From positions 1 to 59,379 of IMG/VR virus record IMGVR_UViG_3300020420_000015: a DNA stretch of 59,379 bases. One strand, written 5' to 3'. Below are positions 11,003-26,432 of the stretch, piece after piece. Origin of the DNA: a virus. Lineage: Duplodnaviria > Caudoviricetes. Every line of letters begins with the position of its first letter. Position 1 is the first letter of the stretch. The position numbers and the translations under genes were made by a program. The notes under the pieces are model-generated. The model was not told the origin of the DNA. It saw only the letters and a program-made list of their open reading frames with translations, and did no database searches.

Positions 11003-11485
11003 CTACGAAGCGTCTGATGAGCTAGAAATACCCATAAACTTCATAACCACAGTTGTGTCTGCTCCGGGGTCACCGGACAGAACAATCTCAACCTCATCTG
11101 CTGTTTCTGTAGCGGCTGTTGTTGTGCCGCCAGACATACCCAACACACCATTACATGGGAAAAAGCCTTTGAAACCAGTTGAGTTTACTGCGGCGGCAAT
11201 GCCGTCAACAAATCCATCTGTGTCTGCGTCTGTGCCGATATCAACTAGGTTTACGTTGTTAGACGCTGCGCCTGTAACGGCGACCATAACAGCCAGAGGG
11301 ATAAAGTTTGATGGAATGCCAATAGCGGATTCTTTTCCTGTAGTAGCACCACTGGCAACTGTTACAGTAGCAGTGTAAACAGAAAGTGTCATCTCACTGG
11401 TAAGGTCACCAGTTGTCGCGCTTTTAATAACATTTTTGAAACCGTTTTCTGAGCGGACGGGACCGCTAAAAGTTGTATTAGCCAT
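11003..11485 (-). CDS. Putative capsid decoration protein
   Basis: MANTTFSGPVRS N-terminus; directly downstream of capsid gene; AAGGAG SD. Confidence 0.55.
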   Translation of the reverse strand: MANTTFSGPVRSENGFKNVIKSATTGDLTSEMTLSVYTATVTVASGATTGKESAIGIPSNFIPLAVMVAVTGAASNNVNLVDIGTDADTDGFVDGIAAAVNSTGFKGFFPCNGVLGMSGGTTTAATETADEVEIVLSGDPGADTTVVMKFMGISSSSDAS

Positions 11486-11537
11486 ATTAACTCCTTGTCG
11501 TGGCTAGTGTCAGCATAAGCTGTCAAGGTTATAAATC

Positions 11538-20110: not shown

Positions 20111-20359
20111 ATGTTTAAGGCCTTTATAGTAGCTTGTCACATAGCTAATCCTGCTGACTGCATACTCATAAGTGATGACCGTGGCCCTTATGACACTGAG
20201 GAAGAATGCAAAACTCGTATTGTAGAAATGATTGAAGACTCGATAGATGTATTCAGAATGATACAAGTTCCCATGATATTTAAGCTGACAAGCTGTGTAC
20301 ACCCAGACGATATGGAATTTACAAATGTCAACATTACTGACCAATATTCCAAACGCTAA
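20111..20359 (+). CDS. Hypothetical Cys-containing protein
   Basis: MFKAFIVAC...C...D.RGPY.TEEEC..R. Confidence 0.65.
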   Translation: MFKAFIVACHIANPADCILISDDRGPYDTEEECKTRIVEMIEDSIDVFRMIQVPMIFKLTSCVHPDDMEFTNVNITDQYSKR

Positions 20360-20960
20360 AGTTTATGTTCGCAAAGAGTATCTTATGGACCACCAAGAGG
20401 GGCATGGTGAGTTCATAGAGGGCCATTGGGTAACAGCAAAGTCCATTCCCGGCAGAGCTTTCTACTTTGAGACATACCTGCCGCAATATGGCGCTTTATA
20501 TGATAAATTACCGATTAGTGCCTTTTTATCAGAGCCAAAAACCCCAGAACCAGACCTGTCCCTGCCAAATCTGCAATTCTGGAACTGCATGGACTATGGC
20601 GTTACGTCTATTTACAAGCAGTTTATCGGGTCTATGGACTTTGAAGTCCGAACCAGAGACTCTGGTAATTTTTACGGCACATATATCTGCACATTAGACA
20701 ACTACCATGCACAGGCAGATGAAATAGACTACTCAACGTCCGAAATTCCCGAAGAACACAAGTCATTTAACCTGATAGAGCTAGAAAACGGGCAATATGC
20801 ACTGTACCCAAACAACAGAATGCGGGTATATGACAACTCTCTAACCCCAGAAAACCCGTTAATGCCCGATTTTAAGGTATCCACCGACTATTATCAGGTA
20901 GAATCAGGCAACAAATACCGCCTAGGGGACACAGAAGAGTATTTTTACGAAAAAAATTAG
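20325..20960 (+). CDS. Conserved phage hypothetical protein
   Basis: YVRKEYL...KSIPGRAFYFE.YL..YGALYDKLPISAF...PNNR; ATG 20325 preferred over GTG 20295. Confidence 0.75.
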   Translation: MSTLLTNIPNAKVYVRKEYLMDHQEGHGEFIEGHWVTAKSIPGRAFYFETYLPQYGALYDKLPISAFLSEPKTPEPDLSLPNLQFWNCMDYGVTSIYKQFIGSMDFEVRTRDSGNFYGTYICTLDNYHAQADEIDYSTSEIPEEHKSFNLIELENGQYALYPNNRMRVYDNSLTPENPLMPDFKVSTDYYQVESGNKYRLGDTEEYFYEKN

Positions 20961-21860: not shown

Positions 21861-22396
21861 GTTCTATTCCCTTTGTTCTGCCACCATGCGCTATCGCTTG
21901 GTCGGGCTTTCACATTCGTACTATGGAACAAATTATACCAGACCCCATGCAGTTGACGCTACCCATATGCCTTTTAAAGGCGATTTAAAGCCCCGTGAGT
22001 GCCTATCTCTATTTTTGCTCATAATCATACACGGGTATGTCGAGAAACGCCTGTACGGGCAAATAAGGTATTTTGAGCATAAAAATTCGCAGTTTCCCGT
22101 ACAATAATTTGGGGCCATTAAACGTCTATAAATTAAATAAAGAAAATAACTCAAAAGACTTGAATAATACTCAGAATAGTGTATTTAGAGGGTATATTCT
22201 TTTTTTTCAAATTTTGGAGGCCATCGCTACACTTACCGGACACGCCCACGGGGGCAGGGGCTAGCAACCCCGACCATACTGGACCACCACCTATTTACCG
22301 CTTCGATAGCGTCCGGCTTATGCGCAAAATGGGGGTGTAGACTGAGGCAGACATGTTTTGCTGTAACGTATCGGTTTAGAGTACGCCTTGCTTATA

Positions 22397-22449
22397 TCCT
22401 GTCGCTGGCATTGGTAGCCAGTTATGAAGAGACACCAAACGAAACAGGA
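22397..22449 (+). ncRNA. Candidate type III hammerhead ribozyme with variant core
   Basis: Stem III TCCTGT/ACAGGA, GTC site (C22403), stem I GCTGGC/GCCAGT, core TATGAAGA (canonical CTGANGA), 1-bp stem II, GAAA; loop I TTGGT complementary to loop II ACCAA. Confidence 0.6.
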
Positions 22450-22457
22450 GACGTTTT

Positions 22458-22631
22458 ATGTATAAAGTAATAGCTGAAGCACACAATATGAGTGCAGATA
22501 GTACATGTAGAACACTGCAAGATGCTAAGAATGCTTGCGGTGTTATGCTTGAGAAGTTGGGTTATCAGAAAAAAGATATCCACATCATCACGCCTGAAGG
22601 CAAAAAATTATACCTCGTTCCTCAAAAATAG
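22458..22631 (+). CDS. 57-aa early protein (missing from ORF track)
   Basis: AGGAG SD 7 nt upstream; MYKVIAEAHNMSAD...LYLVPQK. Confidence 0.7.
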   Translation: MYKVIAEAHNMSADSTCRTLQDAKNACGVMLEKLGYQKKDIHIITPEGKKLYLVPQK

Positions 22632-22640
22632 GAGAATACA

Positions 22641-22820
22641 TTGGTTGAATATTTCCACATTTATGTAAATGGCGGCCTCACATATGTGGGGCTGGTTTTA
22701 TCTCAGGCCGTACAGGTCATGGATAAATTAAAGGCTGATGGCAACAAGCCAGTTATGAAGTCTTATATGCTGGACCCTGTCGTGCTTGCGGCAATGTCAC
22801 AATCGTATGATGACAACTAA
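22641..22820 (+). CDS. 59-aa early protein, TTG start (missing from ORF track)
   Basis: AGGAG SD; MVEYFHIYVNGG...SQSYDDN; stop abuts the hammerhead at 22821. Confidence 0.65.
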   Translation: MVEYFHIYVNGGLTYVGLVLSQAVQVMDKLKADGNKPVMKSYMLDPVVLAAMSQSYDDN

Positions 22821-22885
22821 GCTACCTGATGATGGGCGCGTAGGACACGCCCGAAACACCGCGCCTTGCGGTGTCGTAGCGTCCT
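22821..22885 (+). ncRNA. Type I hammerhead ribozyme with pseudoknot; predicted cut 22875/22876
   Basis: GCTAC-CTGATGA-T-GGGCG[CGTAGGACA]CGCCC-GAA-ACACCGC[GCCTT]GCGGTGT-C-GTAGC; loop II AGGAC pairs with 3' GTCCT. Confidence 0.92.
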
Positions 22886-22915
22886 GCTACATTCCCTACA
22901 ATTTTGGAGACAAAA

Positions 22916-23587
22916 ATGCAAAACGTAACAAAAATTTTAGACATGGACACACTTAACACAATCAATGCCAATGAGAAAAAAATTGGCAAGCTTAACGGTA
23001 AGGCTTCCGCGATTACAGAAGAACGCCAGAAGCTAAAAATGACTAGCTACTGTCTGCTAGTGTCCGGCATGGCAGGGGCTAAGTTGGATAAAGGTAATTT
23101 TAAGTCTGCCGACAGGACCAACCTGAAGGGTGATTTAATGGACGCTGGCGGCCTGACAGATAGCATGGCCGAAAAGTACATCAAAAATGTCGCTGGTGCT
23201 AAAAATAAGCTTAAGGACCACGGCATTAACTCAGATAACATCACACCAGCTGGTGTTGCTGAAATCTTCGAGGACCAAGGTATTACCTCAGAAGCCAAGC
23301 TTATAAAGTTAATCTCTGGTGACAGTGCAAAGTCTAAGGTAGAGCAATTAGTTGACAAGGTTGCTGGCAAGCGTTCGCGCAAGAAAGATAAAGACGGCAA
23401 CAGTGTAGACGGTGATGCTTGGTTGGGTGGTTTGACAGATGAAGATTTATCTGAATTCCACAACAAACTGGCAGATGCTTTAAGGCTTCGCGGTGAAATA
23501 AAGAAAGCCTCTCAGGCGGCTGGTGATAAGGCTCAGGCTGAGATTGAACAAGTCAATGCAATGTGTGAGCAATTAGGCGCGGCATAG
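22916..23587 (+). CDS. Hypothetical helical early protein bracketed by two hammerheads
   Basis: GGAG SD before ATG 22916 (in frame with track ORF 22904); no recognisable domain. Confidence 0.8.
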   Translation: MQNVTKILDMDTLNTINANEKKIGKLNGKASAITEERQKLKMTSYCLLVSGMAGAKLDKGNFKSADRTNLKGDLMDAGGLTDSMAEKYIKNVAGAKNKLKDHGINSDNITPAGVAEIFEDQGITSEAKLIKLISGDSAKSKVEQLVDKVAGKRSRKKDKDGNSVDGDAWLGGLTDEDLSEFHNKLADALRLRGEIKKASQAAGDKAQAEIEQVNAMCEQLGAA

Positions 23588-23649
23588 CTACCTGACGAGC
23601 CAGCTTAGGACACTGGCGAAACTACCCCACGGGGTAGTCGTAGCGTCCT
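23587..23649 (+). ncRNA. Type I hammerhead ribozyme with pseudoknot; predicted cut 23639/23640
   Basis: GCTAC-CTGACGA-GCCAG[CTTAGGACA]CTGGC-GAA-ACTACCC[CACG]GGGTAGT-C-GTAGC; canonical core; loop II AGGAC pairs with 3' GTCCT. Confidence 0.95.
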
Positions 23650-23678
23650 GCTACATTCAACAACTTATGGAGAAAGTC

Positions 23679-23888
23679 ATGAAAACTTTTGTTCATTTTG
23701 TCGGTATGAGGACTGATGCTGAATACTTAGCCGCAGTCAGAGTTTACGGCAAACCTGATTTCATCCATCTGTATCATGACCGCAGAATGTATGGGGATAT
23801 TGATGCAGATAGGGATATTGTGGTGCTTGGTTCAAAAGGCAGGGATTTACCCTGTGAATATTCAGACCAAGACCATGAGAGACATTAA
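23679..23888 (+). CDS. Small early protein
   Basis: GGAG SD; VHFVG.R...Y..AVRVYG.PDFIH..HD.R. Confidence 0.75.
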   Translation: MKTFVHFVGMRTDAEYLAAVRVYGKPDFIHLYHDRRMYGDIDADRDIVVLGSKGRDLPCEYSDQDHERH

Positions 23889-23910
23889 CAAAAGCATGGG
23901 AGATTTTTAC

Positions 23911-24156
23911 ATGCAGAAACATAGAAGAGACCTACTGTCAGGGTTTTATGGCAGATTTTTCACTGGCTTTTTTACAAAGCTAGACGGTACTGAACGGCCT
24001 GTCTGGGGTGTCATTAAGAATGACCCCAACGTGCCGGACCACTTGTGTGTCGTTTATGACATGCGGTTGAAGCAGTACAGGCGTTTCAATATTGAACTGC
24101 CTTTTAATATTCGTTCAGGTAAAGACTTTATCTGTGCGGCTCATACCAACGCATAA
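23911..24156 (+). CDS. Small SH3/Sm-like (WYL_2/DUF2693-like) protein
   Basis: FF...FTK.DGTER...G...VVYD....YRRF; GGGAG SD before ATG 23911. Confidence 0.55.
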   Translation: MQKHRRDLLSGFYGRFFTGFFTKLDGTERPVWGVIKNDPNVPDHLCVVYDMRLKQYRRFNIELPFNIRSGKDFICAAHTNA

Positions 24157-24168
24157 CGGGAGAAAAAA

Positions 24169-25215
24169 ATGCGTATATCTCAAACTGTTCCTATAATTCA
24201 GAAGGCTATAGAAAGCCAGCTTAATTTTCGTATTTCAAACGGTGGGCGTGATGCTCAACGGCTTATCCCATACTTGCAGGGCAAGGCAGGGCTAGGCAAA
24301 ACCACCTCAATAATCAGCGTATGTGAGGCCAATGATAACTGGTCTTATTTCATTTTATCGCTGGCCCAGTTTGATGCTGGTGAACTTATGGGCGTTATTG
24401 CGATGGACGGTGATAATGCTAAACGTCTGAAGCCACATTGGCTGGTGCATGTTGAACAGCTAGCATCCGATAGTGATGTGGTGGTTCTGTTCTGCGATGA
24501 ATTGGCCCAAGCCCCCGTGGCGAATATGAACGTGGCCCGTCAGTTAATTAACGAGTTACGATGTGGTGATTTTATGTTGCCGGATAATGTCGTTATCGTT
24601 GCGGCTGGCAATCGTGTATCGGACAGGGCTGGGGCAAACAATATCCCAACACATATGAAAGACTGCCTGATGTTTTTGGACGTTGAGGCAGATTTAGATG
24701 ACGCTGTTGGGTATTTGTCAAGCAAAGGTATAAGCCCCGTCATTACTGGGTTTATGCGGTTCCGGCCTGAGTTGCTTAACAAGGTGGACCGTGACGCAGA
24801 CGCTAATCCATCACCCCGTTCTTATGAGAGACTTGATACAGTGCTTTCATGGGGCTTGCCAGAACCTGTTGAAAAAGAGGCAGTTGCTGGCATTTTGGGC
24901 AGGGGTGTATGTGCTGAGTTTTACGGTTACAAGCCTATATTCGACAGTGCCATCACTGTTGATGAGGTGCTTGCTAATCCTACATCAGCACCCGTGCCGG
25001 AAGAACCAGCAGTCTGCTACGCTGTAACATCTGCACTGGCCCACGCCATGACAGATAAAAATGTCGGGGCCATTACCCAGTATCTTGCCCGTTTTGTGCA
25101 TAAAGAATTTTATGTGCTGGCAATGAAAGATGCTTTCAAGCGTACACCTTCACTGAAACAAACACCCGAATTTAGGGCGTTTCTATTAGAGCATGGCGCA
25201 GAACTCATGCTCTAA
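24169..25215 (+). CDS. MoxR-like AAA+ ATPase
   Basis: GKAGLGKT (Walker A), VLFCDE (Walker B), AAGNR, SPRS. Confidence 0.88.
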   Translation: MRISQTVPIIQKAIESQLNFRISNGGRDAQRLIPYLQGKAGLGKTTSIISVCEANDNWSYFILSLAQFDAGELMGVIAMDGDNAKRLKPHWLVHVEQLASDSDVVVLFCDELAQAPVANMNVARQLINELRCGDFMLPDNVVIVAAGNRVSDRAGANNIPTHMKDCLMFLDVEADLDDAVGYLSSKGISPVITGFMRFRPELLNKVDRDADANPSPRSYERLDTVLSWGLPEPVEKEAVAGILGRGVCAEFYGYKPIFDSAITVDEVLANPTSAPVPEEPAVCYAVTSALAHAMTDKNVGAITQYLARFVHKEFYVLAMKDAFKRTPSLKQTPEFRAFLLEHGAELML

Positions 25216-25277: not shown

Positions 25278-26432
25278 ATGGATGCAAATACCAAAATTTC
25301 ACGGGCCAAGACACGGCTCTTATTGGACCAGCCTTTCTGGGGTACGTTCACAATGGGTACGCCATTCTATGCTGATGACAAGGTGGACACTGCTTGCACC
25401 AACGGTCAACACATTAAATGGAACCCGTCTTTTGTTGATACCTTAGAGCCAACCAATACTATTTTCTTGGTTGCTCACGAAATAGGCCACATAGTCTTTC
25501 AGCATTGTAACCCCATTAAAGAAATCGATGGCAAGCCTGTGGACCCTGAGGTTCACAATATGGCACTGGATTATGTGCTTAATGCTATTCTCATAGATGG
25601 CAATGTAGGTGAAATGCCGGAAGGTGGTTTATACGAGCCTAGATATCACGGCTGGCCTTGGATTAAAGTTTACCGTGAATTAATTGCAATGGATAAAGAT
25701 GAACGCCCAAAGTCTCAGCCTTGGGGTGGCAATGTCGGCAATCCTGAGGACGATAACGGTAAGCCCTTGCAGGGCAGTCAGCTTGAACAGCACAACATGG
25801 ATATCGAAAGGCGTGTGTTCATGGCGGCAGAGGCCGCTAAGTCTGCTGGTAAATTACCAGCTGGTATTGATGACCTCGTCACAAAAATGAGACGTTCACG
25901 GGTAGATTGGCGTGATGTCTTTAATCGGTTTATCGGTGGTGAACAGCCGGACGATTACACTTGGCGCAGACCACAGAAAAGAATGTGGTTCCAGCATGGC
26001 GTGTACATGCCTTCAGTAGATAAGGTTGGTGTCGGGGATATTGTCGTTGCTGTAGATAGTTCAGGCTCAACTGGCGGACATCATCGGGAATATTTCTTTG
26101 GTGTTCTTAATCAGGTCATAGAAGACCACAATCCAACTTCTGTTACAATCATTACTTGTGATGCTGAGGTGCAAACAGTCAGGCGTTACGAGCAGGGTGA
26201 CATTGTAGAAGACATGGACGTTAAGGGTGATGGTGGCACGAGAGTAGAACCAGTGTTCAGATATGTCAGTGAAGAAAACATTAAGTGCAATGCTCTTGTT
26301 TATCTCACAGACATGGGCATCTGGGATTTTCCAGACAATAAGCCTGATTACCCCGTTCTGTGGGTATCAACTGACCCCGACTGTGCGGACGCACCTTTTG
26401 GGGAAACAACACGCATACAGGTGGCGGCATAA
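25278..26432 (+). CDS. Metallopeptidase-like plus vWA domain protein (DUF2201 family)
   Basis: TACTNG, AHEIGH zincin motif, VDSSGS MIDAS, GGT, YLTD. Confidence 0.85.
   Translation: MDANTKISRAKTRLLLDQPFWGTFTMGTPFYADDKVDTACTNGQHIKWNPSFVDTLEPTNTIFLVAHEIGHIVFQHCNPIKEIDGKPVDPEVHNMALDYVLNAILIDGNVGEMPEGGLYEPRYHGWPWIKVYRELIAMDKDERPKSQPWGGNVGNPEDDNGKPLQGSQLEQHNMDIERRVFMAAEAAKSAGKLPAGIDDLVTKMRRSRVDWRDVFNRFIGGEQPDDYTWRRPQKRMWFQHGVYMPSVDKVGVGDIVVAVDSSGSTGGHHREYFFGVLNQVIEDHNPTSVTIITCDAEVQTVRRYEQGDIVEDMDVKGDGGTRVEPVFRYVSEENIKCNALVYLTDMGIWDFPDNKPDYPVLWVSTDPDCADAPFGETTRIQVAA

Follow-up and report, generated by a model that had tools for sequence, protein, structure and literature searches.

A predicted tail hairpin, conserved among phage type I hammerhead ribozymes, reuses the 3' arm of stem I

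Miller and Silver reportedly described, in 1991, an alternative fold that attenuates hammerhead self-cleavage in a satellite of barley yellow dwarf virus, and further alternative folds attenuate self-cleavage in viroid-like RNAs. The lariat-capping ribozyme of Didymium, which belongs to a different ribozyme class, forms a covalent 3-nt lariat. In bacteria, flush 5' stem-loops (the ompA-type rule) shield mRNAs from 5'-end-dependent decay. Hammerheads with a pseudoknot have been described in all three topologies, the type I examples being clustered between prophage genes, and it was proposed in the text of the same study that long transcripts are processed by them into gene-length mRNAs (Perreault et al. 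2011, PMC3088659). As worded in a 2017 review, the role of prokaryotic and phage hammerheads is an open question of the field (PMC6155905). RiboJ insulators are described as an engineered hammerhead with an added 23-nt hairpin (PMC6993053, citing Lou 2012 and Clifton 2018), and the hairpin of RiboJ-type elements is reported there to expose the ribosome binding site (RBS) and to stabilise the transcript. The same text mentions stabilising structures in 5' UTRs, together with the T7 R1.1 site, where hairpins are processed by RNase III.

The window analysed here is the complete 59,379-bp IMG/VR record of a marine phage, in which two intergenic type I hammerheads flank one gene. DNA near-identical to positions 22500-24000 is present in 18 rows of DNA sequencing runs, each containing at least half of the sampled words and all labelled marine. 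The first ribozyme, HH1, occupies 22821-22880 on the + strand, as do all features of both copies. The 5' arm of its stem I, GCUAC (22821-22825), leads into the core CTGATGA (22826-22832) and an extra T at 22833. Stem II, GGGCG-CGUAGGACA-CGCCC, pairs 22834-22838 with 22848-22852 around loop II, CGUAGGACA (22839-22847). The GAA at 22853-22855 precedes stem III, A-CACCGC-GCCUU-GCGGUG-U, in which 22856-22862 pair with 22868-22874. The cut is predicted 3' of C17 (22875), and the 3' arm of stem I, GUAGC, follows at 22876-22880.

The second ribozyme, HH2 (23587-23644), has the same layout: 5' arm GCTAC at 23587-23591, core CTGACGA at 23592-23598, stem II formed by 23599-23603 with 23613-23617 around loop II at 23604-23612, GAA at 23618-23620, stem III formed by 23621-23627 with 23632-23638, C17 at 23639 with the predicted cut 3' of it, and 3' arm GTAGC at 23640-23644. 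The hammerhead core, taken as CUGANGA, GAA, an A15.1-U16.1 pair and an NUH cleavage triplet, is present in both copies (CTGATGA...GAA-A...T-C at 22826-22875 and CTGACGA...GAA-A...T-C at 23592-23639). So is the three-helix topology of type I, with a loop capping each of stems II and III and stem I as the open helix. The core, the arms and the loop II motif are alike in the two copies; stems II and III are almost wholly different, yet paired. Among the homologues stems II and III covary (GGGCG/CGCCC, GCUGG/CCAGC, GCCAG/CUGGC and others). The extra U at 22833, between A9 of the core CUGAUGA and stem II, is found in HH1 and in many homologues, while HH2 is without it; an extra base between A9 and stem II has a precedent in a viroid hammerhead.

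A covariance model, R1, built from 33 related sequences without the tail columns, scores HH1 at 83.4 bits (E 3.4e-22) and HH2 at 74.6 bits. The third-ranked match in the window reaches only 12 bits, so there are just two copies of the ribozyme in the window. By their core, stems and pseudoknot, HH1 and HH2 are type I hammerheads, and self-cleavage is predicted for both, which would leave a 2',3'-cyclic phosphate and a 5'-OH. The Rfam 15 covariance models gave no match at gathering score across the whole window and no hammerhead match at E up to 0.5; with E up to 10, the only one was that of HH2 to Hammerhead_3 (type III) at 17.6 bits (gathering 48.5; E=3), in a register that differs from the type I fold. 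With every element of core and stems in place in HH1 and HH2, this miss is read as a gap in model sensitivity for the type I permutation and its pseudoknot variant. A blastn search of 22000-24500 against 50,697 phage records gave no match, and a scan of species-representative genome contigs for the window's own ribozyme type returned no stretches. Two metatranscriptome runs contain 0.10 and 0.07 of the words sampled from 22500-24000, in contigs spanning 23802-23979, 22626-22834 (a relative) and 23927-23999, all outside both cut sites. Contigs from public DNA runs tend to break at the ribozyme copies (pieces in X3 end at 22839 and start at 22818 and 23534), and the contig ends near 22818-22848 and around 23534 are probably assembly breaks at the repeated ribozyme sequence.

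Directly 3' of the stem I 3' arm, both copies carry GTCCT, which is complementary to AGGAC in loop II. The pairing, AGGAC:GUCCU, joins 22842-22846 to 22881-22885 in HH1 and 23607-23611 to 23645-23649 in HH2, exceeding the 4 bp between loop and tail taken as the minimum for a pseudoknot, and in HH1 it can be extended to 7 bp (GTAGGAC with GTCCTGC). The active fold engages all of the 10-12 nt after the cut, GUAGC in stem I and GUCCU(GC) in a pseudoknot of 5-7 bp. At least five contiguous pseudoknot pairs are present in 49 of 56 unique homologues (set 1, described below), and four of the seven misses are an artefact of loop extraction, which cut the loop at an internal GAAA. The pseudoknot covaries among the homologues, with compensatory variants such as GAGAC:GTCTC, AGGCA:TGCCT and TGGCT:AGCCA beside AGGAC:GTCCT.

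The original prediction, made from this DNA alone, pointed to the 15 nt after the cut as a refolding element present in both type I copies. An exact search of the window confirmed this: GTAGCGTCCTGCTAC (GTAGC-GTCCT-GCTAC) occurs exactly twice, at 22876-22890 and 23640-23654, both on the + strand. When up to three mismatches are allowed there are four matches against 0.86 expected in the window, the two inexact ones being unrelated. Each copy of the 15-mer starts 1 nt past the GTC of a complete type I hammerhead, and the next 4 nt, ATTC, are also common to both (to 22894 and 23658). As had been claimed, the second GCTAC repeats the 5' arm of stem I exactly (22821-22825 and 23587-23591), so that the tail can form a hairpin from the very bases that stem I needs, with the pseudoknot strand in its loop. 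In HH1 the hairpin would pair GTAGC (22876-22880) with GCTAC (22886-22890) across the loop GTCCT; in HH2 it would pair 23640-23644 with 23650-23654 across GTCCT at 23645-23649.

Relatives were collected in two sets. The loci of set 1 came from pattern scans of IMG/VR for the core with loop II, or for the 5' arm with the core; the tail was not used in collecting them. R1, applied to 192 loci from among the matches listed, gave 73 matches, making 75 with the two in the window. Three low-scoring matches without a proper cleavage triplet or arm pairing were dropped (L175:5568, L121:4175 and L070:1348), and the final set holds 56 unique ribozyme-plus-tail sequences. A strict descriptor, with stem II closing without the extra U, had yielded 14 unique ribozymes and was later relaxed. 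The 33 sequences used for R1 are regular cores; a MAFFT alignment of 44 cores (A2) misaligned the 3' ends of divergent members. Set 2 came from a scan for other loop II motifs, which added 91 loci from more GC-rich phages, with 74 R1 matches and 53 unique sequences. Since the scans picked particular loop II sequences, and one of them the arm GCTAY, pseudoknot-bearing relatives are over-represented, and unique sequences are not independent events, many being of common descent.

In set 1, a hairpin with all five pairs is found in 49 of the 56 unique ribozymes, its second arm following the 3' arm after a spacer of 4-7 nt; random 25-mers tried at the same loci pass this test in 385 of 11,200 cases (3.4%). 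Of the other seven, six form four of the five pairs, no more than the simple arm test yields by chance, and L104 forms no hairpin. The fully paired arms fall into the classes GUAGC/GCUAC, GUAGC/GCUAU, GUAGC/GUUAC, AUAGC/GCUAU, GCAGC/GCUGU, GUGGC/GCCAU, GUGAC/GUCAC and GCGGU/ACCGU, the second and third of which bear G.U pairs; the arm AUAGC combined with GCUAC was not seen in set 1. In an ungapped MAFFT alignment of 44 distinct 24-mers, in which rows with other spacer lengths are consequently scored as broken, pairing extends to 84.5% of cells; shuffles give 76.3%, and none of 500 attains the observed value. In the same alignment all five pairs show changes on both sides (double compensatory), which 10 of 500 shuffles match, and controls slid by 1-3 columns are 15-62% paired. 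An alignment of 30 unique sequences (A1) shows the tail columns G61-C64 and G66-A69 to be invariant, while the bases past the arm and those of stems II and III vary.

The tail follows the 3' arm. One ribozyme (L067) has the stem I arms GCUAC/GUGGC, with a G.U pair in stem I, and a tail reading GCCAU, while each of the four GCAGC sequences has U as the last base of the tail and C as that of the 5' arm. A tail that arose as a duplicate of the 5' arm, for example as a target-site duplication, was rejected, many tails differing from the 5' arm although both are complementary to the 3' arm. In set 1, 12 hairpins include G.U pairing; on the opposite strand such a pair would become an A-C mismatch, and the hairpin is therefore a structure of + strand RNA. 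It is highly improbable, on the same grounds, that the inverted repeat is instead a signal at the level of DNA or of transcription, such as an operator palindrome, a weak intrinsic terminator or a pause hairpin. The G.U pairs would make a DNA repeat imperfect and the stem is only 5 bp (-4.8 kcal/mol); TTTT does directly follow the hairpin in 8 of 49 homologues, but only 4 of 49 have five or more T within the 8 nt that come next. A terminator scan of 22300-24200 called four sites, none of them at the tails. An intrinsic terminator, for which a G+C-rich stem and a U-run would be expected, was rejected, with ATTC following both tails. A terminator-like hairpin at 22673-22694 (+) has nine pairs (six G-C) followed by GTTTTATC and lies inside a 59-codon ORF upstream of HH1; either this small ORF is not real, or HH1 is carried on read-through transcripts.

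The stem I arms of set 2 are unrelated to GCUAC (CCCGC/GCGGG, CCCAC/GUGGG, NCCGC/GCGGA, CCUAC/GUAGG and others), and the tails again change with the 3' arm, even where the 5' arm stays CCCGC or CCCAU. The arms CCCGC/GUGGG occur with a tail of CCAC, CCCAU/GUGGG with CCCAC and NCCGC/GCGGA with UCCGC, and the 3' arm GCGGG occurs with CCGC. When the first 30 nt of the predicted 3' product were folded, nucleotide 1 was paired in 50 of the 53 unique sequences, and at least four of nt 1-5 were paired in 49 of 53, against 36% of shuffled tails and 23% of random 30-mers. Set 1, scored likewise, reaches 54 of 56, and its two controls 32% and 22%; shuffled tails alone thus have 32-36% paired 5' ends. Two sequences (L244 and L214) have only two or three pairs. 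Among the 4-bp hairpins of set 2, 22 unique sequences pair nt 1-4 and a single one pairs nt 2-5: it is the extreme 5' end that stays paired. Both matches found in bacterial genome contigs have flush product hairpins as well. Several phages possess more than one ribozyme, each with its own matching tail; there are six R1 matches in each of L259 and L240 and five in one contig spanned by L132 and L152. In some phages (L259, L240, L205, L269, L253 and the contig of L132 and L152) four to six hammerheads lie within a few kb, and adjacent copies frequently differ in their stem I arms and pseudoknot sequences, a difference that may keep them from cross-pairing when they share a transcript.

It has to be asked whether the second arm could be conserved for some role in the active ribozyme, such as pseudoknot extension, a tertiary contact or protein binding, the hairpin being irrelevant. 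One or two bases at the start of the arm (G or GC) can indeed extend the pseudoknot to 6-7 bp, and such extended pseudoknots recur, GUAGGAC:GUCCUGC in 14 unique sequences and GUGAGAC:GUCUCGC in nine. Nevertheless the extension covers at most two of the five positions and is missing where loop II is CUUAGGACA, while arm positions 3-5 covary with the 3' arm of stem I. Furthermore, the arm of set 2 lies 6-11 nt past the 3' arm (18 nt in L287) and still matches it. A role confined to the active ribozyme is therefore very unlikely. The conservation of the second GCTAC, on which the original prediction had staked itself in advance, holds in both sets of phages, and in both the arm also covaries with the 3' arm; because of this, the comparative data strongly support a hairpin that is under selection as RNA and that cannot coexist with stem I.

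Energies were computed by nearest-neighbour rules, leaving out pseudoknot and tertiary terms. The hairpin alone, with its 5-bp stem, is predicted at -4.8 kcal/mol. The minimum free energy fold of the 3' product contains it at nt 1-15, the pair 1-15 having a probability of 0.996 in HH1 and 0.997 in HH2, and the flush terminal hairpin claimed for this product is predicted accordingly (P ~0.997). Leaving out the pseudoknot, the two folds of the precursor are nearly isoenergetic (HH1 -25.4 vs -26.5, HH2 -23.1 vs -24.2 kcal/mol), so the competition with the active fold that had been proposed to take place before cleavage is physically plausible.

This near-equality would suit a switch acting before cleavage, in which the hairpin is the OFF state of a bistable ribozyme and a terminating ribosome or another factor sets the fraction that is cut. 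In the GCGGA/UCCGC class of set 2, moreover, the hairpin has more pairs than stem I (5 bp against 4 bp), which limits to set 1 the statement that stem I is never the weaker partner. Set 1 itself argues the other way, the tail arm being stronger than the 5' arm in no case, equal in 38 and weaker in 11. The pseudoknot adds about -5.4 to -8.1 kcal/mol to the active fold and so favours it by some 5-8 kcal/mol. Moreover, since the tail is the last part to be made, it may find stem I and the pseudoknot already formed; the pseudoknot and this order of transcription should together favour the active fold before the cut. Finally, short hairpins pair nt 1-4 in preference to nt 2-5 (22 against 1), a bias which points to a free 5' end, and this exists only after cleavage.

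The gene context bears on the same question, since a terminating ribosome had been proposed to bias the outcome and couple cleavage to translation. Stem I does abut or overlap the upstream stop codons, as had been described. The TAA of the 59-codon ORF (22641-22820), at 22818-22820 (+), abuts the 5' arm of HH1, and the TAG at 23585-23587 (+), which ends the ORF between the ribozymes (ATG 22916 to 23587), overlaps stem I of HH2 by one base, its G being the first base of the stem. For 57 homologue contexts the stop codon of the longest ORF upstream was located: it precedes stem I by 5 to 2 nt in 37 of them and falls within the ribozyme in another 17, either at a core UGA (+6) or within loop II (+20) or the loop of stem III (+38), so that 54 of the 57 stops lie at or inside the ribozyme. 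With stops at these positions ribosomes must occupy the 5' arm, which would favour a switch that they control. Tight packing of genes in compact phage genomes predicts the same adjacency, however, with no extra constraint seen, and the positions vary from -31 to +38. The specific coupling to a terminating ribosome was therefore not supported, and a pre-cleavage switch is overall an unlikely account of the tail. Where an upstream ORF stops inside the ribozyme (examples are L016:9758, L025:3725 and L024:3948), part of the ribozyme would also be coding sequence.

A combined form would be a tail with two states read by the ribosome: a ribosome on the 5' arm would park GUAGC in the hairpin, a pause in or the end of upstream translation would lead to cutting, and the hairpin would then serve as the 5' cap. 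This is doubtful, and we give it little weight; were it true, translation-coupled cleavage would let the phage control the relative amounts and the lifetimes of neighbouring cistrons.

The reading we prefer is that the second arm GCUAC, as an alternative partner of GUAGC, is a selected element acting mainly after cleavage. Once the cut is made, the GUAGC-GUCCU strand (with up to two more bases in HH1) is the sole link between the products. Their association through stem I is calculated at -7.4 kcal/mol with the tail unfolded and -0.9 kcal/mol with the hairpin formed, so hairpin formation would weaken the complex by about 6.5 kcal/mol, and by the pseudoknot energy as well if a 5-nt loop that is fully paired cannot maintain the pseudoknot. 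In the proposed sequence of events, the tail arm would oust the 5' arm by intramolecular strand exchange. The upstream fragment, with the whole ribozyme, would then be released and re-ligation would become impossible. The downstream mRNA would open with a flush stem-loop of 5 bp bearing the 5'-OH, and after it would come an unpaired linker, the SD sequence and the AUG; the upstream mRNA would end in the stem III hairpin, so that both products would be hairpin-capped. The site would in this way process mRNA independently of the host. The sequence of these steps, the release of the products, the block to re-ligation and nuclease protection are inferred from the energies together with the pairing bias at the 5' end. 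A hairpin loop of 5 nt that still kissed loop II could, against this, hold the products together. Post-cleavage refolding that weakens re-association of the products and leaves a flush 5' stem-loop is nevertheless the likeliest role of the tail, and we consider it reasonably probable.

The arrangement of the downstream genes can be set beside this proposal. After HH1, GGAG at 22906-22909 and ATG at 22916-22918 (+) precede the gene between the ribozymes, and the predicted cleaved mRNA has a 40-nt leader made up of the hairpin, an unpaired linker and the SD. After HH2 the corresponding elements are GGAG at 23669-23672 and ATG at 23679-23681 (+), the start at 23679 being chosen from the SD spacing; the in-frame ATG at 23667 is the start in the list of ORFs. 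The GGAG lies 25 nt (HH1) and 24 nt (HH2) past the 3' arm of stem I, that is, 10 and 9 nt past the hairpin, and this leader geometry is conserved in the homologues, 54 of 59 contexts having the start codon 30-42 nt past the 3' arm.

The gene between the ribozymes (22916-23587, +) encodes 223 aa from ATG 22916 and belongs to no PHROG or Pfam family, its nearest protein atlas clusters being hypothetical viral proteins; in many homologues an ORF of about 229-252 codons precedes the HH2-like ribozyme. Two ORFs in different frames, 23667-23888 and 23776-24156, overlap on the + strand after HH2, and the second has a weak match to WYL_2 below cutoff (23.1 vs 26.7 bits). Further neighbouring genes on the + strand match phrog_3704 (20295-20960, annotated as ferredoxin in the auxiliary metabolic gene category), phrog_1297 (24169-25215, ATPase) and phrog_1314 (25278-26432, HNH endonuclease). 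Elsewhere in the window, 11483-11528 on the - strand gives a sub-threshold match to Rfam RF03012 (Mu-gpT-DE RNA; 42.2 vs 49 bits, E 2.2e-06, full model length), possibly the sign of a region with a Mu-like major capsid gene.

What phage hammerheads are for becomes a concrete, testable question in the light of a conserved and covarying element that can turn the new end of the transcript into a hairpin. If the proposed role is true, these ribozymes are self-contained mRNA processing sites, at which both products are hairpin-capped and the cut is irreversible without a host RNase, and they are a natural counterpart of engineered RiboJ-type insulators. The tail arm would also become a candidate feature for hammerhead search models, current Rfam models missing HH1 and HH2, and reuse of the stem I 3' arm would offer a compact design rule for synthetic operons.

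In its core, its three-stem topology, the pseudoknot that replaces loop-loop contacts and the placing of ribozymes on either side of single genes in a phage operon, this locus resembles the type I hammerheads presented by Perreault et al. 2011 (PMC3088659). Set against the text of that paper, what differs here is a second partner for the stem I 3' arm and, with it, a product hairpin. No account of the tail hairpin was found in the portions of the literature covered, and the figures or supplementary alignments of PMC3088659 may contain members of this family. While the ribozyme class and its pseudoknot are already known, a natural tail hairpin on a phage hammerhead thus appears to be new.

The satellite and viroid-like RNAs offer a likeness of another kind, a ribozyme strand having a competing partner so that active and inactive folds are mutually exclusive. 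There the setting is rolling-circle replication of circular RNAs, and the alternative folds limit cleavage or favour ligation, whereas here it is the mRNA of a DNA phage, and the competing helix lies at the extreme 5' end of the product. As with the lariat-capping ribozyme of Didymium (PMC5393178), a ribozyme reaction would protect the 5' end of a downstream mRNA; here the protection would come from a base-paired hairpin and not from a covalent lariat. The phage hairpins processed by RNase III, as outlined in PMC6993053, also lie between cistrons and place hairpins at transcript ends against end-dependent RNases. Such sites need host RNases, in contrast to the present one, where the RNA would cut itself and build the hairpin.

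The closest functional analogy, without homology, is with RiboJ as described in PMC6993053: a hammerhead lies upstream of the RBS, the cut mRNA would begin with a hairpin (predicted here with P ~0.997), and the RBS would be left free. The hairpin of RiboJ is, in that description, a separate downstream element, whereas the one found here is natural, conserved and flush with the new 5' end. It reuses the 3' arm of stem I, and its formation therefore requires the ribozyme to be unzipped.
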